A stretch of DNA of 64,000 bases from an uncultured virus (IMG/VR IMGVR_UViG_3300032160_000002) (lineage: Duplodnaviria > Heunggongvirae > Uroviricota > Caudoviricetes): IMG/VR virus record IMGVR_UViG_3300032160_000002; one strand, 5' to 3'. Below are positions 39,011 through 54,485 of this stretch, one piece after another. Under the pieces are notes generated by a model, which ran no database searches, was not told where the DNA came from, and worked only from the letters and a program-made list of their open reading frames with translations. Made by a program: the position numbers and the translations under genes. Numbering within the stretch: the first letter of the stretch is position 1; every line of letters begins with the position of its first letter.

Positions 39011-42000
39011 ATGGCCGATCCCTCCAGTCCGCAGTTCGAGGTGGTGGATCCACAATTTGAAGTTGTGGACCCGCCGCCTCTGACGATGAACCAGAGACGA
39101 GGAAGCTACTCGGGGGCTCCAATTCCGCCTCGACCCACACTTCCTCCCTACGATTGGCAACGCGCGATCGTGGGCGGATTGACCGATATCGTCACGGGTG
39201 GGGGAATGCCATCGAATGAAAGCGCGCCGCCACTGGGCGAACCGATGGCACAGGGCGTGCGCGAACTGGAGACGCCGGGAAAGCGGGGCACAGGAGCCTT
39301 GCGAGTCGCGGCAACTGGCACCGAAGCCTTAACACCGCTGATGGGACCGGCGGCACTGGAAAACCCTCTCTCGATCGCCCGTGGGTTGGCCGAAGGAACG
39401 GCAGCAAGCAAAGGCGTTGAGTACGGCGCAAAGAAGTTAGGCGCAACCAAAGAACAGCAGGATCTTGCCGGAAGTCTGGCATTCTGGGCGCCTGGTGTAG
39501 CACGCTCTGTCATCGATCCGCGCGTTGCCGTGGAATCGGCACCAGAAGGCACACGAGTGGGAGCTACCGTCGCCGGCGGTCGGGCCGGCGCTGGGGTACA
39601 GGTTACCCCGGAGAATATCACCGTAGCCGGGAAAGTTGGCCCGTTCTCCGGCAGCAAGACATTTACTCGCGGAGCACAACCGGCAGGACCAGGAATTGAA
39701 GCTCCGACGATTGAAGGGCAGCCGCTAACCCCAGCACCGCCGACCGATCCCGCCGCTACCGCGATCGCAGAGTATGACACCGTGATGCAGAGAGCAGGCC
39801 AAGTCGTTCGCGGGGAGCCGATTGCACCGCCGCCGCCAGCCCCGCCGCCGATTTCTGCCAGCCCCAACGCTCCGCCATCAGTAAAAGCCGGAAGCATCTC
39901 GCCCGAAGATGTCGCCCAGGTTGCGCAGACCATTGCCAAGTTGCCTCCAGAGATTCGCCCGCAAGCCATGCAGGAAGTCCATCAGACGCTGACGAAAGTT
40001 CTGATGGAGCAAGCCGCGAGCGGAAAGCCGGTCGTACTCCCGAATGGCCAGATGGCGATCATCAAAGACCCGGCCTCCGCCGAAAAAGTAGCGCTGCAGT
40101 TGATGAATGATGCGGTCAAAGATCACGACAAAGCACAGGAAGTAGCAGCCAAGGAAGCGGAGAAAGCGGCGAAAGAGGAAGCGAAGCCGACACCAGCCGC
40201 GACGACGGGAGTACGGGCCAACAGTAGGCAGAAAGCCGCAGAACTGGCACAGCCTAAGTTTGAAGTTTCGGAAGCGCCCGCACCGAAGTTTGAAGTCGTA
40301 GAACCGGAACAGAAGGTAGAATCAGGAAATGGACGACGCGAATCCCAAGGTGCATTATCTGAGAGCCGAGCTCTACCCGTGGAGCGGCCCGGACGTGAAG
40401 AAGTTAGTGGAGAACCTCAACGAAGTCCTGAGCCGAGTGTCGCGGGAGGAATTGCGGTTGCGTCTGGCGAAGCACATGGGAACGCCGGAGAGCCACCTGT
40501 TCGTGTCGGATCGGGAACTGGTGCACCAAGTGCAGGAGAATCCTCAAATATTCTTCCCGGAAATAAATCTGCCGCAGTAGCCGAACAGCAGCCCTTTACC
40601 AAAGGCGATCCGGTAACTTTCTCCCGCAACCTGCAAGTTCGGAAAGGGGAAGGCAAATCGGAGATCATCCCGGTCGGCACCAAAGCCTTTATCGAACACG
40701 CCAATCCGGGGATGAACTTCGCAAGAGTGCGGTTGACCGATGGACGAGTACAATCGGTGCCGCTGAGGAATCTGGAGAAACATGAGGAAGCCCAAGGAGC
40801 GGGTGACCGCAGCAGAGCCGCCGAAATATCTGCTCAACGAGCAGGGGGAAATGGTGGGAGTGCAGCAGGAATTGGAAATGTCGCGAGCCGACCTGCAGAA
40901 GCTGTATCCGAACGTAATCCTGCCGCCGCCGCGCAAGAAGGGGCGAGGATTACCAGCGTTGCTAAAGAGACCGCGCCCGCAGTAACTCCCGCCAAGTCCG
41001 AGTGGCAAACCCTCTTCGAGAAAGCCTCTTCCCTCCAACCCGACAAAGTAGAGTCTCTGCGCAAGATGAGTGGAGAACAGTTGCAAAGTGTCATTCAAGG
41101 ACATTCCGAGACATCCAAGAAGCCCGTCACGCCACAGGTGGAACCGTCTTACTCCTATGGTTTGCCGTCCTTTGTGGGTGCAGGGCACACCGCGAAAGCC
41201 GAGCCGGTCGCGATTCCCAAAGGCCACTGGATGAATCGCATGGATGTGGACGAAGTTGCCAATCGGTATGGGAGTCATCCGGTTCACCCGATTCTCGGCA
41301 AGGCCACGAAGTTCCTGCAACAGTTCGTCGAGGAAGTGGACAGCCACAGCGACGGCTGGCCTTACTGGCAGGCACCCGCGCACGCCGCACAGCAACTCAT
41401 GGACCTAATCCAGAGTCCGAAGCTGGCGACCGAAGAGGCTCTCGCGAAGGCGATGTCCCCGATTAAATCCTTTATGACCAAGCGCGGCACTGCGGCGGGA
41501 ATGAAGATGCCGGAGATCGCGCTGCAGGCGAAAGAAAAAGCTGCGAAAGCCCCTGAAACCGGGAGTACAATAGATTCCGAGAAACCGCATGAGCCGCTCG
41601 CAAACCAGACCGCGGGAACCGCTCGAAACCCTGAAAACTTACCCAGCGTTTCAAGCGCTGCGCGCGAAAGCGGAACAGCACCAACTTCACTTTCGACCGA
41701 AGGAAAGCGAGCGGATGAAGAAGAACGGCTCGCTGGACGACATCCTGGACAGCCGGGCGGAGAGCGCCTGGAACAGCCTGCAGGACAACCTGGCCAACGG
41801 CTCGAACCAGAAGGAAGCCGAGGAAGTGGCGCTGCCGAACATCCTGGTACGAAGCGAACAGGAGGACGAGCAGGATCGCCTCGATCAGGAGGAGCAGGAG
41901 CAGACGGCCAGCCAGTAGAATCTCCTACCCCGCAAGAGCCAGAGGAAGCCCGCACTACCACCGCCGAACTGCGCAACCAGCGCAACTTCCGTATCTCGGA

Positions 42001-45000
42001 CGAAGAAGCCGCGAAGATCGGCACCGGCGGCGAAATCTCCAAAATCAAAGGCAACCTCGATGCGCTCGAAACTCTGAAGACGATTCAGAAAGAAGGGCGC
42101 GAGATCGCGACGCCGGAAGAACAGGCCACGCTTGCGAAGTACGTTGACTTCGGCGGCCTCGTCGGAATGCTGCAGAATCACTGGAAGCCTGAGTACACCA
42201 AGCACTACGAGCGCTTCACCAGCCTACTCACTCCTGCCGAGATTCAGGAAATCCGCGAAACCCTGCCGAACACCCACTACACCAGCATGCAGATGGTCGA
42301 CTGGATGTGGAAGGCGATGCAGCGCATGGGATTCCGTGGCGGGCGAATTATCGAGCCGGGTATGGGCATCGGCAACTTCATGGGGCGGATCCCGGAGAAA
42401 ATTGCCAACCGCTCCGAACTCTACGGCGTAGAGCGCAACCCGCTCACCGGCAGCATGGCGAAGCTGCTTTATCCGGACGCAAACATTCAGGTCAAGCCAT
42501 TTCAGCACTTCCTTGTCCCGAACAACTCACTCGACGCCGCGATCGGCAACGTTCCCTTTCAGGACGTGAACATCACTGACGATCCGGTTTACAAAGACCT
42601 CAAACTGAATCTGCATAACTACTTCATCGTGAAGACGCTCGACAAGCTGAAGCCGGGCGGGATCGCCGCGCTGATCACCTCGCGCTACACCATGGACTCC
42701 GCAAAAGGCACGGGCGTTCGGGCGCGCGAGGAGATGGCAAAGCGTGCGGACCTGGTCGGTGCAATCCGCTTGCCGGATGCGGCGTTCAAGCGCACTGCTG
42801 GCACTGAAGTCGTTGCTGATCTGCTGATCTTCCAGAAACGCGATCCGAAGGTCGAACTGGAAAAGATGCCGGAATGGGTTAAGTCCGTTCCCACGAAAGT
42901 GGGCAGCGCGGAATTCCCCATCAATCAATACTTCCTCGACAATCCGAGCCACGTCTTAGGCGAGCACTCCGATCAGGGACAGATGTACCGGGCTGGCAGC
43001 TACACCGTGAAAGCGCCGAAAGATTTCGACGCAGCCCTCGCCGGCGCCGCCGATCTGGTTCCGCGCAGCATCTTCGGAAAGGTGAAAACGAACCAGCCGA
43101 GCCAGGCACCGCCGGCAACGCTCGATCCGGGCGAGATGCAATTCGCGCCGGAAGACGTGAAGCCGGGCGCATTCTTCCGAGATGCGAAAGGCGCGATCAA
43201 GATCAAGCAGGCCGGCGTCGCCGCGGACCTCCCTGAAAACCTGCGCAACGCGGCCAGTAAGGAACAGATCGGTCACGCGATCGATCTCCGCGACCAACTC
43301 AATCGCGCCATCGAAACCCAGTTGCAGACCTCCGACGATGACTCGCTGAAGGAAGAGCAAAAGAAACTGGTCGACCTCTACAACAAGTACCACAAGAAAT
43401 ATGGCCCGCTGCATGGGCCGAAGCTCGCGAAGCTCTTCGGCGATGATCCGGAGTATCCGAAACTGCTAGCGCTAGAGAACGTCGATCCGGAGACCAAGGA
43501 GATTACGCGGGCCGCGATCTTCACCAAGCGCGTACTTGCGCCCTATGAGCCTTTGCGCGATCTGCCGGATGATCCGAAATCAGCCATGCTGAAAGTGATG
43601 GCGGAGCGCGGCTACCTCGACACCGGGCTCATGGCCGGGCTTCTCAAGAAACCCGAAGCCGATGTCATCGCGAATCTGGAAAAGCAGGACCTGATCTTCC
43701 AGGATCCGCAGTCCGGCATCTACCACACTGCCGACGATTATCTTTCCGGCAACGTGCGCGAGAAGTTGAAGCTGGCCGAGCACGCGCTCGAAAGCGATGC
43801 GAAGTACGCGCGCAACGTCGAAGCGCTGAAGAAATCTCAACCGAAGCCTCTCACCATCCACGACATCCAGCCGAATCTGGGCCAGACCTGGATTCCGATG
43901 AACGTTTACAAGGGCTTTATCGCGCACCTGGCGAAGACCGGAAACATCGACGTGGAGATCAACCGCGATGCCACGGGAAAGTGGCTGGTACGGGCCGAAG
44001 GCAACAAGTTTGCTCTGCAACACGAATGGGCGGGCGGCGACATTCCCGGACACAAGCTGGTGCAGTACGCCATGAACCAGCAGCAGCCGACCGTCTACCA
44101 GAAGGACGACAAAGGTTCCGTCTCGATCGATCAGCAGGCGACAACGGCCGCGCGGGAAAAGCTGGCTGCGATCAAGGAAGAATTCCGCACCGTCCTGCGA
44201 CGTGCCAACCAATCGACCGTCGACAAGCTCGAACAGATTTATAACGACACCTTTAACGCCTACAAATTGCGGGAGTTCTCCGGAGAGCATCTTGACTTCC
44301 CCGGCATGAGCGAAGAATGGCGCGACAAGATTCGCGGCTACCAGAAAGCGGCCGTGTGGCGCATTCTGCAGGAGGGGCGCGGCGGCATCTTCCACGCGCC
44401 AGGTCTCGGCAAGACCCTGACCATGGCCGCCTCCGGCATGGAAGCGCGCCGGCTGAAGCTCTCGCGCAAGAATATGTATGCGGTGCCGAATCACATGGTT
44501 CCGCAGTGGCGCGAAGATTTCAAACGCTTTTACCCGAATGCAAACGTGCTCGCTGTCACCGACGATGATTTCACCGCCACGAACCGCGCGAAGCTGATGA
44601 GCCGTATCGCAACCGGCGACTGGGACGCTGTGATTGTGCCGCACTCCCAGTTTGATCTTTTGCCGATGTCGCCGGAGTGGGAAAAGCAGACCATCGACAA
44701 ACGCCTTGCCGACTACCGTCAGGTCCTCGAAGAGTTAGACGAGGATAACGACAAGCGCACCATCAAGCAGATCGAGAAGGCCGTCGACAAGCTGGAAGCC
44801 CGCCTCAATGAGTTGAACGCAAAGAAGAAAGACGAAGCGATCCCGTTTGACCAACTCGGCGTCGACATGCTCTTCGTCGACGAAGCCCACGCCTACAAAG
44901 CGATGGCCGTACCGAGCAAGATGGGCAATGTGGGCGGACTCTCGAATCGCGCCAGCCAGCGGGCTTTCGCGTTGGAGATGAAAGCAGACTATCTCCGCAA

Positions 45001-48000
45001 CACCCACAAGGGCCGCGGCCTGGTCTTTGGCACCGGCACCCCGATCACGAACACCGTGGGCGAACTTTATGTGATGACGAAGTATCTGGCGCCGGAGATG
45101 CTCGAAGCCGCCGGTATTCGCAGCTTCGACGACTGGGCGGCCAACTTCGCGACGACAGTGACGCAATGGGAGTATTCCCCGGATGGTGTAACCTTCAAGC
45201 CGAAGACCACGCTCTCAGAATTCGTGAACGTCCCGGAACTCTCGACCATGTTCCGCCGCTACGCGGAGTATCTCTCGAAGGAAGCAGCCAAGCAACTCTC
45301 GAACCTGAAAGAGCCCAAGGCCAACCGCAAAGACCACATGGTCACAGTGACGCCGACGCAAGAGCCGTTGCTCGAAATGATCGCCGATCGCGGAGACCAC
45401 CTCACGAAACACCCGCCGCGCACCAAGGAAGAGCGCCAAGCGGACAACTGGCTGAAGCTATCGAGCGATGCCCGCAAAATCTCGCTCGATCCGCGCCTCT
45501 ACAATCCGGAACTCCATGACGACGCGGGATCGAAGGCGAATGAAGCCGTGCAGGTGATTAAGGACACCCTCGACAAAAGTAAAGAACAACGCGGGACCGT
45601 CGTCGTGTTCTCCGACTTCTTTCAGCACATGGGAAAGGACGGCAAGCCCGATTTCAATCTCTTTGAGGACATGAAGAAAAAGCTGGTGAAGCAGGGAGTT
45701 CCCGCCGGCGAGATCGCCATCATCCACGAAGCGGCAGATAAGGAAGAAAAAGAGGCGCTATTTGCGCGCGTGCGCAGCGGGAAAGTGCGTGTACTGTTTG
45801 GTTCGACCGACAAGATGGGCATCGGCACCAACGTGCAGGACCGGCTGAAAGCGGAATTGCACCTCGATCAACCCTGGCGCCCGGACCAGGTGGAACAGCG
45901 CGAAGGCCGCATCATCCGCTCCGGCAATATGTGGGACGATGTCGACATTCACCGATTCATCGCCGAACCGGAAGAGGGAATGATCAAGCGCTGGGATCCG
46001 CAGCAGCAGAAGGAAGTGGAGAAGCCCCGCCCGCGCGCCTATGATCTGCAGATGTATCAGCAACTTTCGCGCAAAGCGAACTTTCAGGAGCAATTCCTCA
46101 CCGGCAACTACACCGGGCGAAGCATGGAGGACGTGGGCGGCGATGTAAAACTGAATTCGCAAATGTTCGAGTTGGCGAAGGCGATGGCGACCGGCAACCC
46201 CGATGCCCTGCGCAAGATCAAGGTGGAACACGATCTGCGCACCTATTCGATGCTGGAGCGCAACTTCCAGGTCGAGCGCTCGAAGAACACCCGCACCCAG
46301 CAGAACCTGGAATACCGCATCCCTGTCATCGAACAGAAAATCAAACTGCTCGATCGCGATATCGCACTGTGGAAGAAAGCGGAAGAGAACGAAGAAAAAG
46401 GAATCTCGCTGCAGGTTGGCGACAAGACGCGCCAGGGCGACGAACTGAAGACCTGGGTGGACTCCGAGCCGAACATCGCCGACCTGGTGGGCAAGCCTTT
46501 GAAGATCGGCGGCATCGCGACGGAGTTAGACGCCTCGCTCGGCCGCGAACTCAACAAAAAAACTGGCGACTGGTTTGAGACGGTACGCTATCGTTATCGG
46601 CTCGCTGGCGAGGAGCACGAAGTTCCGTTCAACTTCGAGAAGGGCGTCCACCAGGTCCGGGCGCTGCTGAATTCCTTCGCGCAACGGGCGCGCCATCTCG
46701 AAGCGATGCGGACGACGGCGGGATACGACCTGGAGCGATCCAAAGAGGACCTCACCAATATCAAGAAAGAATTGGAGCGCACTTCTCCCTACCTCGCGAA
46801 AGTGGAGGGGATGGAGAAGGAAATCGCGGAGATCAACAAGCGCCTGGGCATGACAGGCCCGGCAGAAGTGGATGAGGGCGCCGCGCCGAGCGAAGACGAA
46901 TCGGAAAAGCCGACTACGACAGGCAAAGAGAAGAAAGAAGGCATCCTCACCGGCGAATCCGGCTCCCTTGAACCTGCGAAAGCTGCCCAAGTCGTTGCCA
47001 ATGGTGCTGGCCGTGTCGGAGATTTCCTCCGCCAGGAAGTCGAAGACAACCGCCGCGCCCACGAACTGCAGTGGGATCTGTACGACCTCGACAAACGCCA
47101 TGAAGGGCGTGTCCTACGCGCAAAGCAACTTCTTGAAGGTCTGCAAGCCGATGGAGTGACGCAGGAAGACCGGCGCGCGATCGATGATCACCTCGACGCG
47201 CTGCAAGCCGACTCCGATTCTGTTCCCGTGCCGCCGCTCACTGAGAAGCAGGACCGAATCCTGGATGACGTACTCATGCCCATGAAGGCCGAAGCAGAGG
47301 AAGCCTTCAAGAAAGTCACCGGCGCCGGCATGACCATTCCGAACTACAACCCGCGGCAGACCAAAGGCCGCGGGGGAATGCTCGACCGATTCCTCACTCC
47401 AGAAGGGGAGAAGCGCACCGGGCGCGGCAACACCCTCTCCACCGCGAATCCAGCGAGCAAACATCGGGTGATGATGGCGCTCGAAAACCAAGGCAAGCGC
47501 ATCGTGGTCTCGCTGAAGGGCGGCCAGGTCACCGCCTGGGACCATGGCACCCCAGAAAACCTAGGGCCAATCCTGCACACCGACGAAGGCCGGGAATTCC
47601 TCGACAAGGATGACAACATCTGGACGCTGAAGCAGGCGACCAAAGACGAAATCGAAGAACACACGGGAGTCGAGTATTATCACGACGCGGCCGCTTCCAC
47701 GATCGTGAACTGGCTGCAGGCGAAGAAAGCCGAAGCCGCGCACGATTTCCTGGAGAAGTTCAAAGGCGATCCCGAATTCAAGCAGATCGCAGTCCCAACC
47801 GACGCCGGCAATCCTCCAAAGGGCTGGCGAACCACCAACCTGCCGCAGATGAAAGGCTACTACTTCGAGCCGCACACGGCAGAAGTGCTCGACTGGTTCA
47901 ACGACCGGCTGAAATCCGGGAACCCCAACGCCTTCGATTCGATCAACTCCTACATGCGCATGAAGATCCTGCTGAACCCGATCAAGCACCCACTGAACGT

Positions 48001-49417
48001 GGGAGCGCAGTGGGCGGTGCAGAAGGGGGTCACCGGATTCCTGCCGAACCGCTGGATGAAGATCGGGCGTACCGGAGCGAGAGCCATCAACGCGATCGTG
48101 AATCAGAATCACGACATGCGCGAAGCCTTGGATGCAGGAGGAGCGCTGCAGTCTGCGCACGGCGTCACGCGCGACCTAGTGAAACTGTTCTACGACCAGA
48201 TGGCCGATGGCGCGGAAAAAGGCGAACCGTGGGCAACGAAACTAGCAAAGGCTGTGGGACTCGCGCCGGTGGAGTTGGTCAAGGTGCTGCACAATTTCTC
48301 GTCCAAGATTGCATGGCCAGTCTCGGACATGATGTACCTGCAGGCAGCTTACGAGTATCAGGAAGATCACGCTGGCGTGGATCTGCACGAGGCTCTGCGC
48401 GAAGTGGGAAAGATCATTCCGGAGTATCGCTTGCCGACGCGGATCATGGACTCGCGCACGCTCGCGAAAGTGATGGGTTCGCCGATTGGCACGGTGTTCG
48501 GAGCCTACCACTACGGCCTGTTGCGATCCTTTTCCGAGAGCGCGAAATCCGCACTGGGCGCGGGCGAACCAGCACCAGGAAGAACCAAAGCGCAAGAAGT
48601 GGGGAAAGGCTGGGATCGGTTGGCGATGATGGCTCTCGGAGCTTTCGCAATCTACGCCGTGGCCGATGAGCTCGCCCGGAAGCTGACCACCAACAAAGAC
48701 GCGACCGTACAGCGGCATGGAATCTTCGGACTGATTCAGGCTGTTAGTGATGTGGCCCGGAAAGAATCCTCTACGACGCAAGCCATCACGAAAGTGATGA
48801 CGCCGAACCCGCTGACGCTCGGTCTCACGCAACTTGCCTTCAACCGCGATCTGCGTACTGGACGACGCCTCTGGGACCCTGCCGCAGACTGGGGAACGGT
48901 CGGTACGCAACTTATGGCCTACCTAAAAGAGCAAGCACTGCCGCAGGGCCAACAGATCGAACGCGCCGCGCACTCCGATGAAGGCTGGAAGAAATTCGCC
49001 TGGAACCAGGCCGACGTAAACCTCCCTAAACACGGCGCCGAGAAACTAGCCGCAGAGATCGCGAGCTCGAAGATGGACACCTCCGCCTGGACGCCAGAAG
49101 AGCGAGAGCGCTACTACGCGCGCCAACAGGCTCTCGAAGGTCTACGCCGCGGAGATTCGCACGCTCTGGAGGAAGGACTGGAGAAAGGCCGCATCCGCTC
49201 GGACGAACTCACCAGCATTCTCCGCCGATCTTCCGGGAGTCCGCTTTATGATCGCGTGCATGGCTTCAGCTACGACGAAACCCTGCGCGTGTACGAGAAG
49301 GCTGTCGAAGACAAGGACGAAGCCGCACAGGAAGAGCTATTGCCCCTCTTGCTCGAAAAGCAGAGCAAGCTGATGAGCCAGGGGAGATACGAAGAGGCCG
49401 GAGTGCCAGTGCAATGA
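39011..49417 (+). CDS. giant DarB-like internal virion protein: N6-adenine DNA methyltransferase plus SNF2-type helicase
   Basis: EPGMGIGNF (motif I), IGNVPF (motif IV), YLSGNVREKL, HAPGLGKT, VDEAH, TGTPITN, MGIGTNVQ, EQREGRIIR. Confidence 0.9.
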   Translation: MADPSSPQFEVVDPQFEVVDPPPLTMNQRRGSYSGAPIPPRPTLPPYDWQRAIVGGLTDIVTGGGMPSNESAPPLGEPMAQGVRELETPGKRGTGALRVAATGTEALTPLMGPAALENPLSIARGLAEGTAASKGVEYGAKKLGATKEQQDLAGSLAFWAPGVARSVIDPRVAVESAPEGTRVGATVAGGRAGAGVQVTPENITVAGKVGPFSGSKTFTRGAQPAGPGIEAPTIEGQPLTPAPPTDPAATAIAEYDTVMQRAGQVVRGEPIAPPPPAPPPISASPNAPPSVKAGSISPEDVAQVAQTIAKLPPEIRPQAMQEVHQTLTKVLMEQAASGKPVVLPNGQMAIIKDPASAEKVALQLMNDAVKDHDKAQEVAAKEAEKAAKEEAKPTPAATTGVRANSRQKAAELAQPKFEVSEAPAPKFEVVEPEQKVESGNGRRESQGALSESRALPVERPGREEVSGEPQRSPEPSVAGGIAVASGEAHGNAGEPPVRVGSGTGAPSAGESSNILPGNKSAAVAEQQPFTKGDPVTFSRNLQVRKGEGKSEIIPVGTKAFIEHANPGMNFARVRLTDGRVQSVPLRNLEKHEEAQGAGDRSRAAEISAQRAGGNGGSAAGIGNVASRPAEAVSERNPAAAAQEGARITSVAKETAPAVTPAKSEWQTLFEKASSLQPDKVESLRKMSGEQLQSVIQGHSETSKKPVTPQVEPSYSYGLPSFVGAGHTAKAEPVAIPKGHWMNRMDVDEVANRYGSHPVHPILGKATKFLQQFVEEVDSHSDGWPYWQAPAHAAQQLMDLIQSPKLATEEALAKAMSPIKSFMTKRGTAAGMKMPEIALQAKEKAAKAPETGSTIDSEKPHEPLANQTAGTARNPENLPSVSSAARESGTAPTSLSTEGKRADEEERLAGRHPGQPGGERLEQPAGQPGQRLEPEGSRGSGAAEHPGTKRTGGRAGSPRSGGAGADGQPVESPTPQEPEEARTTTAELRNQRNFRISDEEAAKIGTGGEISKIKGNLDALETLKTIQKEGREIATPEEQATLAKYVDFGGLVGMLQNHWKPEYTKHYERFTSLLTPAEIQEIRETLPNTHYTSMQMVDWMWKAMQRMGFRGGRIIEPGMGIGNFMGRIPEKIANRSELYGVERNPLTGSMAKLLYPDANIQVKPFQHFLVPNNSLDAAIGNVPFQDVNITDDPVYKDLKLNLHNYFIVKTLDKLKPGGIAALITSRYTMDSAKGTGVRAREEMAKRADLVGAIRLPDAAFKRTAGTEVVADLLIFQKRDPKVELEKMPEWVKSVPTKVGSAEFPINQYFLDNPSHVLGEHSDQGQMYRAGSYTVKAPKDFDAALAGAADLVPRSIFGKVKTNQPSQAPPATLDPGEMQFAPEDVKPGAFFRDAKGAIKIKQAGVAADLPENLRNAASKEQIGHAIDLRDQLNRAIETQLQTSDDDSLKEEQKKLVDLYNKYHKKYGPLHGPKLAKLFGDDPEYPKLLALENVDPETKEITRAAIFTKRVLAPYEPLRDLPDDPKSAMLKVMAERGYLDTGLMAGLLKKPEADVIANLEKQDLIFQDPQSGIYHTADDYLSGNVREKLKLAEHALESDAKYARNVEALKKSQPKPLTIHDIQPNLGQTWIPMNVYKGFIAHLAKTGNIDVEINRDATGKWLVRAEGNKFALQHEWAGGDIPGHKLVQYAMNQQQPTVYQKDDKGSVSIDQQATTAAREKLAAIKEEFRTVLRRANQSTVDKLEQIYNDTFNAYKLREFSGEHLDFPGMSEEWRDKIRGYQKAAVWRILQEGRGGIFHAPGLGKTLTMAASGMEARRLKLSRKNMYAVPNHMVPQWREDFKRFYPNANVLAVTDDDFTATNRAKLMSRIATGDWDAVIVPHSQFDLLPMSPEWEKQTIDKRLADYRQVLEELDEDNDKRTIKQIEKAVDKLEARLNELNAKKKDEAIPFDQLGVDMLFVDEAHAYKAMAVPSKMGNVGGLSNRASQRAFALEMKADYLRNTHKGRGLVFGTGTPITNTVGELYVMTKYLAPEMLEAAGIRSFDDWAANFATTVTQWEYSPDGVTFKPKTTLSEFVNVPELSTMFRRYAEYLSKEAAKQLSNLKEPKANRKDHMVTVTPTQEPLLEMIADRGDHLTKHPPRTKEERQADNWLKLSSDARKISLDPRLYNPELHDDAGSKANEAVQVIKDTLDKSKEQRGTVVVFSDFFQHMGKDGKPDFNLFEDMKKKLVKQGVPAGEIAIIHEAADKEEKEALFARVRSGKVRVLFGSTDKMGIGTNVQDRLKAELHLDQPWRPDQVEQREGRIIRSGNMWDDVDIHRFIAEPEEGMIKRWDPQQQKEVEKPRPRAYDLQMYQQLSRKANFQEQFLTGNYTGRSMEDVGGDVKLNSQMFELAKAMATGNPDALRKIKVEHDLRTYSMLERNFQVERSKNTRTQQNLEYRIPVIEQKIKLLDRDIALWKKAEENEEKGISLQVGDKTRQGDELKTWVDSEPNIADLVGKPLKIGGIATELDASLGRELNKKTGDWFETVRYRYRLAGEEHEVPFNFEKGVHQVRALLNSFAQRARHLEAMRTTAGYDLERSKEDLTNIKKELERTSPYLAKVEGMEKEIAEINKRLGMTGPAEVDEGAAPSEDESEKPTTTGKEKKEGILTGESGSLEPAKAAQVVANGAGRVGDFLRQEVEDNRRAHELQWDLYDLDKRHEGRVLRAKQLLEGLQADGVTQEDRRAIDDHLDALQADSDSVPVPPLTEKQDRILDDVLMPMKAEAEEAFKKVTGAGMTIPNYNPRQTKGRGGMLDRFLTPEGEKRTGRGNTLSTANPASKHRVMMALENQGKRIVVSLKGGQVTAWDHGTPENLGPILHTDEGREFLDKDDNIWTLKQATKDEIEEHTGVEYYHDAAASTIVNWLQAKKAEAAHDFLEKFKGDPEFKQIAVPTDAGNPPKGWRTTNLPQMKGYYFEPHTAEVLDWFNDRLKSGNPNAFDSINSYMRMKILLNPIKHPLNVGAQWAVQKGVTGFLPNRWMKIGRTGARAINAIVNQNHDMREALDAGGALQSAHGVTRDLVKLFYDQMADGAEKGEPWATKLAKAVGLAPVELVKVLHNFSSKIAWPVSDMMYLQAAYEYQEDHAGVDLHEALREVGKIIPEYRLPTRIMDSRTLAKVMGSPIGTVFGAYHYGLLRSFSESAKSALGAGEPAPGRTKAQEVGKGWDRLAMMALGAFAIYAVADELARKLTTNKDATVQRHGIFGLIQAVSDVARKESSTTQAITKVMTPNPLTLGLTQLAFNRDLRTGRRLWDPAADWGTVGTQLMAYLKEQALPQGQQIERAAHSDEGWKKFAWNQADVNLPKHGAEKLAAEIASSKMDTSAWTPEERERYYARQQALEGLRRGDSHALEEGLEKGRIRSDELTSILRRSSGSPLYDRVHGFSYDETLRVYEKAVEDKDEAAQEELLPLLLEKQSKLMSQGRYEEAGVPVQ
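40329..40580 (+). CDS. overprinted +1-frame gene 1 inside the DarB-like gene
   Basis: Genome-like codon usage in this frame; GGTAGAAT 6 nt before ATG; main frame is low-complexity here. Confidence 0.6.
   Translation: MDDANPKVHYLRAELYPWSGPDVKKLVENLNEVLSRVSREELRLRLAKHMGTPESHLFVSDRELVHQVQENPQIFFPEINLPQ
40782..40985 (+). CDS. overprinted +1-frame gene 2 inside the DarB-like gene
   Basis: GGAG RBS; genome-like codons; main frame is low-complexity. Confidence 0.55.
   Translation: MRKPKERVTAAEPPKYLLNEQGEMVGVQQELEMSRADLQKLYPNVILPPPRKKGRGLPALLKRPRPQ
41589..41918 (+). CDS. overprinted +1-frame gene 3, TnpV-like helical protein
   Basis: HFRPKESERMKKNGSLDDILDSRAESA...NG....EAEEVAL; strongly G/C-ending codons; TACAAT upstream. 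Confidence 0.65.
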   Translation: MSRSQTRPREPLETLKTYPAFQALRAKAEQHQLHFRPKESERMKKNGSLDDILDSRAESAWNSLQDNLANGSNQKEAEEVALPNILVRSEQEDEQDRLDQEEQEQTASQ

Positions 49418-49712: not shown

Positions 49713-50318
49713 ATGCCCCGAAAAAAGAAAGCAGCCAAAGCCCGTCGTGGCGGAAATCCCGCCAACCTCGAAAAGTCGCGCGCACAGACTAAAGCCCATC
49801 TGCAGCGAGGCCGGCAAAAAGAACGCGAACTGTCGATCCCGGAGATTGAGTATTGCGCCTGGCGGGCGCAGGGAGCAGCCCAATGGGATGCGGCGGAGTT
49901 TGCCGGTATCGCCAAAGGGAACCTTTACCGCCTCGAACAGCGCGAGAGCACACAGAAAACTATCGAGGAGTTCAAAGACAAATTCAAATCCGGCGCGATC
50001 GACCGCGTGGAGCAGATGCGGCAAGAGTTCACCGCATTCGTCTTCGGGCAATATCGCTTGCGGTTGCGGAAGATGAAGACTCACTACTTCCGCGGCGATG
50101 AGTCGATCCAGCGCATGATTGAAACCGGCTTCAAGGCTGCCGGGCTGATCCAGTCGCAGAAAACGGTTAACCAGCAGGTCAACAACGACAACCGGAATAC
50201 CACGAATCAGCTTTACGCCAAACGGCTCTATCTGCCGGATTGGCGAAGGGAAACCATTGAAGGGCTACAGGCAAAAGAATTACAGGCAGCGAAGGAGCCG
50301 GCCAAGCCCGCGCCCTGA
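49713..50318 (+). CDS. terminase small subunit (putative)
   Basis: HTH-like GAAQWDAAEFAGIAKGNLYRL; directly upstream of TerL. Confidence 0.7.
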   Translation: MPRKKKAAKARRGGNPANLEKSRAQTKAHLQRGRQKERELSIPEIEYCAWRAQGAAQWDAAEFAGIAKGNLYRLEQRESTQKTIEEFKDKFKSGAIDRVEQMRQEFTAFVFGQYRLRLRKMKTHYFRGDESIQRMIETGFKAAGLIQSQKTVNQQVNNDNRNTTNQLYAKRLYLPDWRRETIEGLQAKELQAAKEPAKPAP

Positions 50319-52914
50319 GCCTGCCCGCTGGCTGGTTCCGATCGGCCTGACGCTTTTCTTCCTGCTTTGCCTGATCCCCAACGGCCAAACACAAATGATG
50401 ACGGATGTTCAAGTCGAGCCGAAATTCCCGACGCAAGGCAGTTTTACGCCCGCCAGCCAAGCGCAGAAGGACTGGCTGAATTCCCGCGCAGAATTATTGC
50501 TCGGCGGCGGAAGTGTCGGCTCGCTAAAGACCTCGACCATGCTCGTCGATGGCTCCGTCGAATACGACAACTCGAACATGCACACCATCATGTTCCGCAA
50601 GACGCTGGCGGAGCATTCTGAGGCGATCCGGATCTCGCGCGACTGGTTTGCTCAAACCGGAGCGTCCTTCTCCGAAAACGTCCCCCTCGACAACGGGACC
50701 GGCACGCCTAGCTTCAACGGTAACTCCCATATGTGGCGCTGGCCTTGGGGATCAACCTTTCAGTTCGCCTACTGCGCGACCGACAACGACGTTTACGCGC
50801 ACCAGACCCAGAGCTACTGCGTGGAAGTCGGCACCCCCGTACTGATGGCCGACGGCACGTATAAAGCGATTGAGTCTATTGCTGTTGGTGACGTGGTGGC
50901 GACACTCGAAGGGCCTCGCCCGGTGACTCGGACACATGGGGTAAGGTGGAAGCCCTGCGTGCGCGCCGATATTCTCTCTGCTGCAGGGCAGCGCGTAATT
51001 TCCTCGCAGGTACATCCGGAGAACCATCGGGTTTTACTGGCTTCGGGGTGGGAGTCCTACGCTTCGCTAAAAGATGCTCGAAGCGCCTCCGCAGTGTCAT
51101 ATGACCACAACCTAGCACCTTCGCAGCCTCAAGAGTTGTTCGCCCTTGCAGTGCTTGCTTCACCTGTTCTTCGGTCACTGGAACGATCTGCGCCGAGACC
51201 CACTGAATGCTATTTACATCACAAAGCTTCCGCACGGTATTCCAACACATTCCTAGACGACGCGCTGCATCTTGGAGCGTCATGTGAGGATCGGCCGCTA
51301 ACGGTATCACGGCGGCAATTAAAGAGGGATCATGAATCTTCGCCTTTTGTAAGTGATGGAAGCCTATATGCTCGCTATGGGTGGGAAACAACCGTAGATT
51401 TTCGTCGCGATTGTCGCTGCGAATCTTGTTTATGTGATGAACAGCCTCCATTCCTGACAGGTACCTCCCAAGGCGTTTCTCGACAACAAGTCGGTGCTGT
51501 GGAACGAATCCATCCCAGTGCGCTGCTGGATGGTTCGACCGGCGTTCTAGGACGTAGCCAGCAGCATCCATGCGCGTATCCCCATCCTTATACGCATGAA
51601 CCCCGGCCTTGGTTGGGCGATGCGACCATTGCGCCATTGCGGCTCTCTCCTGTAGGTGACCGTGCAGTTTGCGACATTACGATTGATGGGCCGAATCACT
51701 ATATAACATCCCCTGCATTAGTCAACCAAAATTCCTGCATCCTCTGGGATGAATCAACCCGCACCGCCAGCGAATTCATGGTGCGCTACCTGCTGACCCG
51801 ACTGCGATCCACTGACCCATCGTTGTTCCTGCGATGCCGTTTGGGAACGAACCCCGGTGGCGAATTCGCGGAATGGCAGATGAAGATGTTTCTGGGCGGA
51901 GTCTGCCCGCACTGCGAACCTCCAAAGCTCTTTCCCGGAAAGATTTACCACGACACGAAGTGGCCGAGCGACGAGCGTAGCCTCGAAGGGATGACCACGC
52001 AGTTCATCTTCTCGAAGGTCACCGATCACAACCTGCTAGGCGAGAAGTACGTGCGCAATGTCCGTATGCAGCACGCAGCGACGGCAGAAGCTTTGCTAGC
52101 CGGATGCTGGAGGGCCTTCGAGGGCCAGTACTACACCATCTGGCATAGACCCACGATGGTCGTGCCGCGCCAGACCATCCGGGATAAATGGTATTGGGAA
52201 TCTTGGGTCGGGGCGGACTACGGCTTCGCTGGATCAAAGGCCGTGGCCTACCTGTTCGTTCGCGATCCTAAGACACGGCGTATCTACATCATCGACGAGC
52301 ACGTGGGCGAGCATGAAGCTGTCCGCGACTTCGCGCGTAGCGTCTACGAGAAGTTCGCCAAGAAGCGCGACGATCAGGAACAACCCAGGAAACTGCGGAT
52401 CATGTACCTCTCACCCGACGCCTGGAACGATCGCGGCGATCAACATACGCTGGCCGGCCAGATGAATGACGTGCTGCAGCCGCATGGCCTCGTTTTCGTC
52501 AAGGCGAAGAATGATCGCGCTGGCGGCGCCATGCTAACTTACGAATTGCTGCGTGACGGCACGGTACTGATCGCGGACAACTGCACTCTGCTTCCCCCGG
52601 CCATCGAAAGCGCCGTACACGATCCGAAACAGCCGGAAGCCATCCTCAACGTTCCCAATAATCCGCACTCGGACGCGCGCGACGCATTCCGCTACGGGAC
52701 TTACTCCCATCACCGCGAGGCCCTAGAACCGCTCGATGTGCGCGTCGCCGAACGAGTGCAGGAAGAGTGGAAGCACGATCCGACCTCAGCCATGTTCCAC
52801 GCGCAGCAGATTCGCGACGAAGAAAAGGCCAAAGAAGGCCCGAAAGTCTCCTCTTACGGCGGTGGCAACGCGCGGCGCCGCATTCAGCAGTGGGAGCGCT
52901 CGCGCAAGGGATAA
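50257..52914 (+). CDS. terL: terminase large subunit containing an intein (start either TTG 50257 or ATG 50395)
   Basis: LLGGGSVGSLKT Walker A, ILWDE Walker B, GTNPGG, GADYGF nuclease motif, DARDAFRYG. Confidence 0.92.
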   Translation: MKGYRQKNYRQRRSRPSPRPEPARWLVPIGLTLFFLLCLIPNGQTQMMTDVQVEPKFPTQGSFTPASQAQKDWLNSRAELLLGGGSVGSLKTSTMLVDGSVEYDNSNMHTIMFRKTLAEHSEAIRISRDWFAQTGASFSENVPLDNGTGTPSFNGNSHMWRWPWGSTFQFAYCATDNDVYAHQTQSYCVEVGTPVLMADGTYKAIESIAVGDVVATLEGPRPVTRTHGVRWKPCVRADILSAAGQRVISSQVHPENHRVLLASGWESYASLKDARSASAVSYDHNLAPSQPQELFALAVLASPVLRSLERSAPRPTECYLHHKASARYSNTFLDDALHLGASCEDRPLTVSRRQLKRDHESSPFVSDGSLYARYGWETTVDFRRDCRCESCLCDEQPPFLTGTSQGVSRQQVGAVERIHPSALLDGSTGVLGRSQQHPCAYPHPYTHEPRPWLGDATIAPLRLSPVGDRAVCDITIDGPNHYITSPALVNQNSCILWDESTRTASEFMVRYLLTRLRSTDPSLFLRCRLGTNPGGEFAEWQMKMFLGGVCPHCEPPKLFPGKIYHDTKWPSDERSLEGMTTQFIFSKVTDHNLLGEKYVRNVRMQHAATAEALLAGCWRAFEGQYYTIWHRPTMVVPRQTIRDKWYWESWVGADYGFAGSKAVAYLFVRDPKTRRIYIIDEHVGEHEAVRDFARSVYEKFAKKRDDQEQPRKLRIMYLSPDAWNDRGDQHTLAGQMNDVLQPHGLVFVKAKNDRAGGAMLTYELLRDGTVLIADNCTLLPPAIESAVHDPKQPEAILNVPNNPHSDARDAFRYGTYSHHREALEPLDVRVAERVQEEWKHDPTSAMFHAQQIRDEEKAKEGPKVSSYGGGNARRRIQQWERSRKG
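50876..51637 (-). CDS. HNH homing endonuclease with HTH-like domains, encoded antisense within the intein
   Basis: YKDG...GYVLERRSNHPAA..GFVPQHRLVVEKRLGRYL...EAVHHINKIRSDNRDENLRLF..HSEH..FH; AGGAG RBS. Confidence 0.9.
   Translation of the reverse strand: MAQWSHRPTKAGVHAYKDGDTRMDAAGYVLERRSNHPAAHWDGFVPQHRLVVEKRLGRYLSGMEAVHHINKIRSDNRDENLRLFPTHSEHIGFHHLQKAKIHDPSLIAAVIPLAADPHMTLQDAARRLGMCWNTVRKLCDVNSIQWVSAQIVPVTEEQVKQALQGRTTLEAAKVLGCGHMTLRRRFEHLLAKRRTPTPKPVKPDGSPDVPARKLRAALQQREYRRARRASTLPHVSESPGEALRVSPPRHQQQ
51698..51725 (-). promoter_or_regulatory. candidate promoter for the antisense HNH gene
   Basis: TTGACT-N16-TATAGT on the minus strand, inside the intein C-terminal codons. Confidence 0.6.
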
Positions 52915-52922
52915 CGAAACCG

Positions 52923-54485
52923 ATGAAAACTTTCTTCAACCTGGTACGGACCCTCGCAGCGGTGTGCGCTCTCTCGCTTGCAGCCTTGGGACAAGGGGTT
53001 ACAGTCACCGCGACGCTCACCGACGGCCAGGGCATTCCGCAGAAAACATCCTATCTCCACTGGCAATTGTGGAACTGCGGCAACAATGTACCGCAGATCA
53101 TCGGCCAGCCCTACGCCATGGTCGCGCAGCAGTTCGACATGCGCGCCAATCCGACCACCGGCGTGATCTCGGGCTCGGTATACGGCAACGACCAGATCGA
53201 ATGCGGAAACGTTTTATCGACGCAGTGGATCGTCACCGAGTTCAAATCGAGCGGCCAGGCCGGAGGACAGCCCCAGTACTACTGCCTGACCAACGGTGAG
53301 AGCTTCAATCCCGCGACGACTCAGGTCTGCCAGGTCGTGCCTCCGCCTCCGGGCTACATCCTGCTATTCGGCAATCCGATCCAGAGCCAGACTCTCGACC
53401 AGCCGCTCGGAACGGAGATGAACTTCCAAGGGACGATGAATTTCTGTTCCGCGACGGTGCTCTGCGCCGGAGGGGAAGGAGCGTATTCGCTCGAAGTCAA
53501 TGGCGTTGGTCTCAGTGGCGGCGACACCGTGAACTTTAACAATTCGCTGCCTGCGGCCGGAGCCAATGGGCTCAACGTAATCTTCCAGACTTCGAAGAGC
53601 GGATCCACCGACAGCGTCAGCGCGGAACTTATCGGAGATGGGAACGCGGGTCACTTCCTGGACGGACAAGGAGTATTTGCCGCCCCACCGGGTAACGGGC
53701 TCCCCAGCAATCCCCAAACCGGCGACACCCTGCGCTGGAACGTCAACGGAGACAACGCCTGGGATGCGGTGAACTACTCGAATACCCGGATTGTCTCGGT
53801 GTTCTTCACCGCAGGCTCGAACGATTTCGGAGCGTCCGGCGGGAAGACAACTACCCCCAACGCAACCGGCGGCGTGGCCCAGGTTCCTGCGACCTATACC
53901 GACGACTTTGGGGGAAACCTCTTCGTGAACGGCACTCCCTCGACCAACACGCTCGTCGGAGTCGACTACGAAGCGGGCGCCAACTTAGGCGACTTTGGGA
54001 TTGGATCCTTCTACAAATGGAGCTTCCGTTTTGCCGCAGGCTATACCACCAGCGTTCGTTACTGGATGGGCATGGGAGTCTATTTCATCGGCGGGACCGG
54101 GGCGAACGGGACTGCGCTTCTCGGCACCACGGCCTACGCGACCGACACTCCCAACAAATCTACCGTCGGATTCCGCTTTTCCGCCGGAACCGATAGCACA
54201 TGGCAGGCCTGTGCCGTCACCGCCGGATCCAGCAGCGGAACGCAAACCTGCACCTCCACTGGAGTTACCCCCGACACGAACCCACACCTGTTTGAGATGA
54301 CCACCACGGGAACGGTGGTGACCTATTACATCGACCATGTGCAGGTCGCGACCGTGAGCACGAATGTTCCCTCCGGCCTTCTGGGCGGCAACTCCGCGGC
54401 CTTGATGTTTTGGACCGGAGACAACAAGAACACCAGCAACAATATTTCCGGAACGCACTACTACATGACGCTCTCGCCCAAGTAA
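52923..54485 (+). CDS. signal-peptide-bearing tail fibre-like protein with C-terminal lectin-like beta domain
   Basis: MKTFFNLVRTLAAVCALSLAALG-Q; VTATLTDGQG; FLDGQGVFAAP; GDTLRWN; VTYYIDHVQVAT. Confidence 0.7.
   Translation: MKTFFNLVRTLAAVCALSLAALGQGVTVTATLTDGQGIPQKTSYLHWQLWNCGNNVPQIIGQPYAMVAQQFDMRANPTTGVISGSVYGNDQIECGNVLSTQWIVTEFKSSGQAGGQPQYYCLTNGESFNPATTQVCQVVPPPPGYILLFGNPIQSQTLDQPLGTEMNFQGTMNFCSATVLCAGGEGAYSLEVNGVGLSGGDTVNFNNSLPAAGANGLNVIFQTSKSGSTDSVSAELIGDGNAGHFLDGQGVFAAPPGNGLPSNPQTGDTLRWNVNGDNAWDAVNYSNTRIVSVFFTAGSNDFGASGGKTTTPNATGGVAQVPATYTDDFGGNLFVNGTPSTNTLVGVDYEAGANLGDFGIGSFYKWSFRFAAGYTTSVRYWMGMGVYFIGGTGANGTALLGTTAYATDTPNKSTVGFRFSAGTDSTWQACAVTAGSSSGTQTCTSTGVTPDTNPHLFEMTTTGTVVTYYIDHVQVATVSTNVPSGLLGGNSAALMFWTGDNKNTSNNISGTHYYMTLSPK

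Follow-up and report, generated by a model that had tools for sequence, protein, structure and literature searches.

An HNH endonuclease gene nested antisense within the terminase intein of an uncultured phage

The stretch of DNA described here, a 64,000-nucleotide window, belongs to an uncultured peat-metagenome phage of the Caudoviricetes (IMG/VR record IMGVR_UViG_3300032160_000002). Its gene for the large terminase subunit (TerL, encoded by terL) is interrupted by an intein of 305 codons, and the opposite strand of the intein DNA encodes an HNH endonuclease (Table 1). A first-pass annotation, made from the sequence alone, had described this layout and read it as a composite selfish element in which the nuclease gene hides in the spacer of an intein in an essential gene.

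The plus-strand open reading frame (ORF) that contains the intein matches two PHROG families of the terminase large subunit (phrog_979, 6.3e-20; phrog_5653, 5.7e-7). The ATG at 50395, which encodes residue 47 of the ORF, is the probable TerL start, since the homologue P0137 starts at this same residue of the query. Over the 915 nt of the insert (50818–51732) the terminase frame has no stop codon, as against 3–16 stops in each of the other five frames. The insert lies in frame at the conserved Walker B strand and is missing from close TerL homologues. Sixteen TerL relatives at 64–89% identity are 494–559 amino acids (aa) long, too short to hold it; the protein encoded here would measure 534 aa from M47 once the insert is taken away.

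The first-pass annotation had proposed a 305-aa intein with C1...QN ends and a following Ser, and these ends are found where it placed them. We compared them with those of related inteins in a set of 16 unique loci (this one included, five near-identical duplicates set aside). The N-terminal nucleophile, C1 here, is Cys in 15/16 aligned relatives and Thr in L010. The block B His (H70) is invariant in the intein-frame alignment, and the Thr position of the block B TxxH is not conserved (P here, S in several relatives). At the C-terminus, N305 is followed by S; Asn is present in 15/16 loci (Q in L001), and the +1 extein residue is S, T or C in all 16. The penultimate intein residue is Q or K among the aligned loci, Q in the present one. 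The C-terminal motif is also kept in L053 and L068, two mini-intein relatives. Taken with the essentiality of TerL, the conserved splicing residues point to a class 1-type intein that probably undergoes protein splicing.

We modelled the intein with AlphaFold2 (AF2) and compared the model with solved structures. Foldseek returned 12 PDB hits at E ≤ 0.001, every one of them an intein; the solved inteins matched include PI-SceI, gp41-1, Prp8, DnaB and RecA, and mini-inteins align over both halves. Between the Hint halves lies a spacer of ∼130–160 residues. The intein frame matched none of the PHROG families. The first-pass annotation had noted that the middle of the intein lacks a nuclease motif and reads like an off-frame translation. 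This description holds: no Pfam or PHROG family matches there, and the model has no secondary structure and a predicted local distance difference test score (pLDDT) below 50.

Table 1. Features of the terminase locus and of the two genes that share the intein DNA. Positions are those of the window; pLDDT values are from AF2 models.
Feature	Position	Strand	Description and basis
TerL precursor ORF	50257-52914	+	885 codons stop to stop; PHROG terminase large subunit families
N-extein	50395-50817	+	N-terminal part of TerL ATPase, from the probable start; deviant Walker A; end ...HQTQSY; alignment with intein-less homologues
Intein, 305 codons	50818-51732	+	C1 ... QN then Ser; immediately 5' of Walker B (S)CILWDE
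Intein N-terminal splicing (Hint) subdomain, residues 1-90	50818-51087	+	pLDDT 89-98, beta-rich; Foldseek matches to solved inteins
Nested antisense HNH_3 endonuclease gene, 253 aa, ATG start	50876-51637	-	Wholly within intein DNA; two helix-turn-helix modules and a non-conserved tail
C-terminal tail of HNH ORF, residues 198-253 and stop	50876-51046	-	Non-conserved; antisense to intein N-terminal splicing domain
Two helix-turn-helix DNA-binding modules, residues 104-190	51068-51328	-	HTH_23 in two stretches; high-pLDDT helices; conserved to about residue 197
Sense-frame spacer, intein residues 119-250	51172-51567	+	Open frame; pLDDT <50, no secondary structure, no family match
HNH catalytic domain, residues 21-100	51338-51577	-	Invariant motif residues; Pfam HNH_3 match covers residues 48-85
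Intein C-terminal splicing subdomain, residues 251-305	51568-51732	+	Y.HPYT motif; blocks F/G ...DITIDGPNHYIT...LVNQN; pLDDT 83-97
Shine-Dalgarno-like AGGAG	51647-51651	-	9 nt before HNH ATG at 51637; purine-rich sites likewise placed in many relatives
Sigma-70-like promoter candidate (weak), TTGACT-16 nt-TATAGT	51698-51725	-	10/12 match; inside intein; complement of NHYIT...LVN codons
C-extein	51733-52914	+	Walker B (SCILWDE), remaining ATPase and TerL nuclease domain; 70-89% identity to intein-less homologues

The minus-strand ORF of 253 codons had been described as an HNH nuclease with two helix-turn-helix (HTH) segments, and profile searches of both strands agree. It scores above the Pfam cutoffs for HNH_3 (34.1 versus 24.8 bits, E 2e-8) and, in two stretches, for HTH_23 (31.6 versus 24.6 bits); the plus strand gave a Hint match under the cutoff. 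The same ORF matches 11 PHROG families annotated as HNH endonuclease, the best at 2.1e-18. Ten residues (H48, R49, L50, E53, H67, H68, N76, L81, H90 and H94) are invariant across 22 HNH sequences, and N80 is nearly so. We found 128 HNH homologues at E ≤ 0.001; in the closest ones, similarity takes in the HNH domain and the two HTH modules as far as about residue 197. Beyond that point the tails vary in length and sequence, and over the tail DNA the terminase-frame coding signature dominates. The AF2 model of the HNH frame reaches a pLDDT of at least 86 over residues 21–190 and exceeds 90 in the HNH motif.

The only solved relative found by sequence profile (E 0.022), and also the top Foldseek hit (E 0.057, probability 0.90), is I-HmuI (PDB 1u3e), an HNH homing endonuclease that a phage group I intron encodes. 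Both proteins place a C-terminal helix-turn-helix after the HNH domain. I-HmuI differs in being sense-encoded within its intron, and the protein encoded here has two HTH modules, whose number and order vary among relatives. The arrangement of modules after the HNH domain differs among L009, L011, L013, L014, L026, L028, L031 and L047: some of these relatives carry an RTTLEAA...KRxSP module ahead of a DP.V...W module, and some have three or four modules.

The two genes overlap in a fixed register. Codon position 1 falls at coordinates 1 mod 3 on both strands, so that each wobble position faces the second base of a codon on the other strand, exactly as first annotated. In this phase, a stop in the sense frame arises wherever an HNH codon NTT, NTC or NCT is followed by a codon starting with A. 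Given the register, such codon pairs are barred in the nuclease gene because the sense frame must stay free of stops. We estimated how often a gene of this kind would leave the other strand open. When the HNH protein and its codon usage were held fixed, synonymous shuffles left the terminase frame stop-free in 4/20000 cases; shuffles of codon order did so in 3/20000. About 6–7 sense-frame stops are expected from shuffles of the window gene, and none is present.

Free-standing HNH_3 relatives provide a natural control, and all 24 contain stops in the same antisense phase (3–18 each, mean 0.035 per codon). By comparison, the sense frame is without stops in every one of the 16 unique loci, where 2–11 are expected, over a G+C range of 0.38–0.60; per locus, the stop-free share of shuffles is 0–0.048. 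Counts in the 16 loci were taken over the HNH stretch matched by tblastn and, in the window, over the whole ORF. The open terminase frame across the HNH gene is not due to chance, and selection removes sense-frame stops. Two claims of the first-pass annotation, that the overlap is no GC-rich shadow ORF and that selection keeps the sense strand open, are thus upheld. Two free-standing HNH relatives on viral contigs, L019 and L023, are G+C-rich loci in which the HNH match is spanned by stop-free antisense frames of 246 and 282 codons; these may be ordinary shadow ORFs.

Codon-position variability indicates which frame is selected as protein in each part of the insert. We measured it as the mean pairwise nucleotide difference at terminase-frame positions 1/2/3 in 15 non-redundant loci. 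The values are 0.49/0.41/0.68 in the N-terminal splicing part (intein residues 1–85), 0.46/0.67/0.36 in the middle (residues 86–255), and 0.48/0.41/0.65 in the C-terminal part (residues 256–305). The usual coding pattern is therefore that of the terminase frame at the intein ends and that of the HNH frame in the middle. We read the middle as HNH-coding because terminase position 2, the most variable there, is the HNH wobble position. When the 15 loci are aligned through the HNH protein instead, the HNH-frame positions 1/2/3 differ by 0.48/0.43/0.65. Amino-acid identity over the middle is 0.39 in the HNH frame, compared with 0.20 when the same DNA is translated in the sense direction.

AF2 predictions for the products of the two strands are confident for the HNH protein and disordered for the sense-frame middle. 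The sense spacer is open yet not selected as protein, and it is disordered by prediction. A short stretch at 51575–51600 is dual-coding: two conserved motifs, Y.HPYT(G) of the intein and YK(G/D)G.T of the HNH protein, are written on shared bases. Mini-inteins also retain the Y.HPYT(G) motif of this stretch.

The nested layout recurs widely. A scan of viral contigs with the HNH alignment gave 46 loci. At 20 of them the match reaches HNH residue 146 or beyond, and at all 20 the HNH sequence lies inside an antisense stop-free frame of 665–941 codons; at the 26 loci matched by the HNH motif only, the longest spanning antisense frame is 282 codons. The long antisense frames encode TerL proteins, divergent from one another, in which a related intein occupies the strand running into Walker B (hhhhDE). 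The relative phase of the HNH and terminase frames is identical in 16/16 unique loci. The HNH stop-free frame stays within the intein DNA in 15 of these, and in L007 it runs 25 nt past the end of the intein, in a part that precedes the chosen start codon. Among species genomes, both full-length HNH hits are nested in the same way, one on the chromosome of a cyanobacterial metagenome-assembled genome (MAG; L047) and the other in a Chlamydiae MAG (L049); four motif-only hits in species genomes are not nested.

The layout was also recovered independently of the HNH sequence. A degenerate DNA pattern of the intein C-terminal motif identified 31 loci on viral contigs, four of them on contigs already known. 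An antisense HNH-family ORF in the same phase is present at 29 of the 31, and at 28 of the 31 the antisense stop-free frame is at least 223 aa long. In all, the layout is found in dozens of divergent phage terminases. At the protein level, a profile of the intein frame matched 3782 of 1.84 billion cluster representatives at E ≤ 0.001, 499 at E ≤ 1e-10 and 207 at E ≤ 1e-30. Lengths of 700–900 aa prevail among the best 150; these are matches of proteins, and nesting is not part of the count. Among the GenBank phage records of INPHARED, 44 matched the HNH protein; every match was confined to the HNH motif (≤34% of the query), and nesting was seen in none. The intein frame found generic Hint N-termini in only three INPHARED records, and no cultured phage with the element was found there.

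The insertion point takes two forms in the 16 loci, three codons apart and divided by TerL subfamily (...QGxxY|[ST]WhGhDE and ...QGSQIPLI|CFDE), which suggests that the site has shifted between TerL subfamilies within a single Walker B strand. The TerL ORF of L047, at 1326 codons, seems to hold two inserts: one of ∼390 aa sits in frame in the P-loop, after GGSAGGGK, and ends ...THN|S; the other is a Walker-B intein of 302 codons with an antisense HNH gene.

Several observations bear on the mobility of the element. In P0137 (846 aa, 70% identity), the Walker B junction is uninterrupted and a different intein is present near the C-terminus. P0137 is the closest intein-bearing TerL relative, and its intein (Pfam Hint_2 and Intein_splicing) lies in the C-terminal nuclease domain. 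This terminase lineage is thus a target of at least two unrelated inteins. Conversely, P0138 is only 37% identical overall and has the same intein at the same site. Splicing-domain identity lies above extein identity in 106/120 locus pairs; for pairs that include the window, the figures are 0.30–0.48 versus 0.17–0.26.

The family also includes what look like successive stages of decay. The HNH motif has been deleted in L043/L044, with both frames still open, and in L054 a 95-aa HTH remnant is all that is left of the nuclease. In L010 the HNH ORF is truncated and the first intein residue is Thr. The nuclease gene is absent altogether from L053 and L068, mini-inteins of ∼175 and ∼145 aa. This pattern suggests an element that moves between terminases, then loses its nuclease, and then shrinks to a mini-intein.

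The nuclease gene has candidate expression signals of its own. The AGGAG ribosome-binding site named in the first-pass annotation is present at 51651–51647, 9 nt ahead of the ATG, and the start codon, stop codon and candidate promoter were all correctly placed inside the intein DNA. A promoter-like site comparable to that of the window (at least 9/12, same offset and spacer) occurs in 10/16 loci. When the synonymous codons of this site were resampled, the mean summed score was 106.3, compared with 112 observed (P = 0.04); the resampling used 12/16 loci, with L001, L002, L006 and L010 omitted for C-terminal indels. Because the amino-acid motif alone yields most of the score, we keep 51698–51725 only as a weak candidate for a selected promoter of the HNH gene. 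Contigs from two RNA libraries (X6 and X7, metatranscriptomes of a related peat study) match 50898–51083 and 51351–51550 exactly, within the HNH ORF. Each library contributes one contig within the intein and none on the exteins, an absence that carries no weight. These contigs are at most a weak hint of expression. Contigs of the independent DNA run X2 (records 2 and 3) span both intein junctions with identical sequence.

We consider it likely that the locus is a two-strand selfish element in terL, composed of an intein and an antisense homing HNH gene in its spacer. This reading builds on the anatomy, both coding signatures, the stop avoidance, the recurrence, the sporadic distribution and the decay forms established above; splicing, separate antisense expression and the nuclease target are proposed from the same sequences. 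A class 1-type intein interrupts the Walker B strand of the TerL ATPase. The full precursor would be translated through the spacer, and the intein would presumably excise itself to give active TerL. The HNH protein would be made from its own minus-strand message. During co-infection, this I-HmuI-like enzyme may cleave or nick terL copies that lack the intein, close to the Walker B codons, and repair would copy the intein together with the nuclease gene into the intein-less alleles, which is homing. Only copies with a stop-free sense frame would survive, because TerL is essential. Site-specific cutting or nicking of intein-less terL is suggested by the sporadic distribution of the element and by the conservation of the intein above that of its exteins. 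The composite selfish element of the first-pass annotation fits all the sequence-based tests that we ran, and none of them contradicted it.

Some of our observations weigh against this reading. The only family match of the intein frame, to Pfam Hom_end_hint over residues 1–32, remains under the cutoff (23.9 versus 32.1 bits). The penultimate residue of inteins, in block G, is usually H, and the present intein has Q. The similarity to I-HmuI is marginal by both measures (Foldseek E 0.057, profile E 0.022). The promoter-like site that the first-pass annotation had put forward follows for the most part from the conserved NHYIT...L[VI]N residues, and the RNA-library contigs are strandless, with DNA carry-over possible. 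The HNH-based scan for loci favours intact copies; the motif-based scan lifts this bias only partly, as it needs an intact intein C-terminus. In DNA runs X2 and X4, no intein-less allele of this phage and no intein-skipping joint was seen.

Other explanations of the locus differ mainly in what the nested gene does. It could be a silent relic: a free-standing nuclease gene would have landed in a mini-intein, would no longer be expressed and would persist only through its youth, so that the whole would amount to a mini-intein carrying a long loop of junk. Decay forms do occur in the family (L043/L044, L054, L010, L053 and L068), and the authors of a 2025 preprint expect antisense ORFs to decay fast after homing ends (bioRxiv 10.1101/2025.01.02.630785). 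We nonetheless judge this unlikely here. The window ORF is intact with all catalytic-motif residues present, and the HNH-frame wobble is the most variable position (0.48/0.43/0.65) across 15 loci at ∼39% amino-acid identity. Antisense frames of at least 223 aa at 28/31 motif-found loci would be unexpected for unselected DNA at such divergence. An active enzyme might instead assist packaging with no part in homing, aiding the terminase like the HNH proteins of HK97-like cos phages. That the 16 closest TerL relatives lack the insert and that mini-inteins lack the HNH gene shows the nuclease to be dispensable for packaging, even though it sits inside terL itself and packaging-aiding HNH endonucleases beside terminase genes have been described (PMC3592412; discussion of the ShiLan paper). 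The HNH_3 plus HTH build and the sole solved relative, I-HmuI, point to homing enzymes, and the HNH gene travels with the intein over terminases of only ∼20% identity. A role as packaging co-factor is thus very unlikely.

The remaining alternatives concern the open sense frame and the reality of the layout. If TerL were assembled by trans-splicing from two polypeptides, as a fractured gene with a split intein, the open frame would be incidental. Split inteins whose halves flank a nuclease gene are known (Dassa et al. 2009, PMC2677866). Trans-splicing needs no open frame, yet 16/16 loci are stop-free against 2–11 stops expected, which holds for none of the 24 free-standing relatives; the sense frame is a single 885-codon ORF in which no internal stop or restart signal is seen. 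We therefore regard trans-splicing as highly improbable. Chance (a shadow ORF), faulty assembly and a group I intron are all excluded as sources of the layout. A G+C content of 55–60% does favour long spurious ORFs. Chance would have to account for an HNH_3 match over the Pfam cutoff, for stop-free shuffles in only 4/20000 cases and for the same layout in dozens of loci, and an artefact for both junctions being bridged by identical contigs in the independent DNA run X2. A search for group I or II introns gave no Rfam match at E ≤ 1 over 50000–53000.

The two strands could also be bound together more closely than the two-strand selfish element requires, although we find this doubtful. Strictly conserved codons of the C-terminal splicing blocks (NHYIT...L[VI]N) would also serve as −10 and −35 boxes for the nuclease promoter, and Y.HPYTG would share its bases with YKGG.T in a single entangled unit. 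If this were true, loss of the promoter or 5′ end of the nuclease gene would kill splicing and hence the phage. Transcription of the nuclease gene would run counter to the late operon and would not depend on TerL; it might also take place early in infection. Antisense transcription over terL might also delay or damp packaging.

Inteins harbouring an antisense nuclease gene are already on record. LAGLIDADG inteins of this kind were found in Synechocystis DnaX and in a Chloroflexus SpoVR-like protein (Gorbalenya 1998 and Gogarten 2002, as cited in bioRxiv 10.1101/2025.01.02.630785). Antisense LAGLIDADG or VSR-like ORFs are also described in actinobacteriophage inteins, with TerL among the hosts (Gosselin, Arsenault, Gogarten, bioRxiv 10.1101/2025.01.02.630785). 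The novelty implied by the first-pass annotation was thus overstated, as antisense LAGLIDADG and VSR-like intein nucleases, including some in terminase genes, had been published. These inteins resemble the present one in having a separate opposite-strand ORF between the splicing blocks, an open sense frame without recognisable structure in the middle and a TerL host. The origin that Gosselin et al. propose, a free-standing nuclease gene that invaded an intein, fits here too.

The present element differs from those of Gosselin et al. in its nuclease, which is HNH_3 with HTH (I-HmuI-like) and not LAGLIDADG or VSR-like, and in its hosts, which are environmental uncultured phages and prophage-like MAG DNA (cyanobacterial, Chlamydiae) and not actinophages. 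Its family is also large: 207 cluster representatives match the intein-frame profile at E ≤ 1e-30. The survey of Gosselin et al. gives HNH only as an in-frame intein domain (bioRxiv 10.1101/2025.01.02.630785). In our literature search, no intein with an HNH gene in antisense came to light, although the supplements of that preprint could hide one. The arrangement is therefore already known for LAGLIDADG and VSR-like nucleases, and an HNH-type nuclease in a large environmental phage family is a new variant of it.

Three other systems share parts of this organisation. The ShiLan domain and other hidden HNH endonucleases are encoded out of frame in actinophage DNA methylase genes (Arsenault, Gosselin, Gogarten 2025, PMC11855218). 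ShiLan too conceals a homing-type HNH gene in an alternative frame of an in-frame, stop-free insert whose sense product is predicted to be an unstructured loop, and its distribution is likewise sporadic. The ShiLan HNH is in frame 3 of the same strand, its insert has no splicing domains, and the loop stays in the host protein, whereas the HNH gene here is antisense and its insert has complete Hint ends. In fractured genes, a free-standing VSR-like nuclease gene separates the two parts of a split intein (Dassa et al. 2009, PMC2677866). Such genes share with the present locus a free-standing nuclease gene within the intein-coding region of an essential gene; theirs consist of two ORFs spliced in trans, and here one ORF continues through the complement of the nuclease gene. 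Inteins with an in-frame nuclease have the same Hint fold and the same placement of nuclease-coding DNA between blocks B and F, and differ in that the nuclease is part of the intein polypeptide.

HNH thus becomes the third nuclease class to use the antisense layout, and its occurrence in a large family of environmental phage terminases extends that layout beyond a few LAGLIDADG and VSR-like cases. The locus is also a test case of dual-strand coding, in which an essential gene keeps one strand open and the other strand carries a selected protein. The cost of such coding is measurable: each gene is cleared of some 2–11 potential stops, and certain dipeptides, among them Phe before Ile, Met, Thr, Asn or Lys, are not encodable. 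The data fit a free-standing nuclease gene that invaded a mini-intein, and the family holds a full decay series, which supports a 'splicing first' origin of intein nucleases. The layout also matters for annotation, as a gene caller restricted to a single gene per locus will overlook the HNH gene or break the terminase apart.

Directly upstream of the terminase region, a plus-strand ORF of 3468 aa occupies 39011–49417. It contains ResIII, SNF2 and Helicase_C domains, together with an Eco57I-like methylase signature that falls slightly under the cutoff. These matches make the product a giant methylase-helicase protein, a type known from some phages and plasmids.

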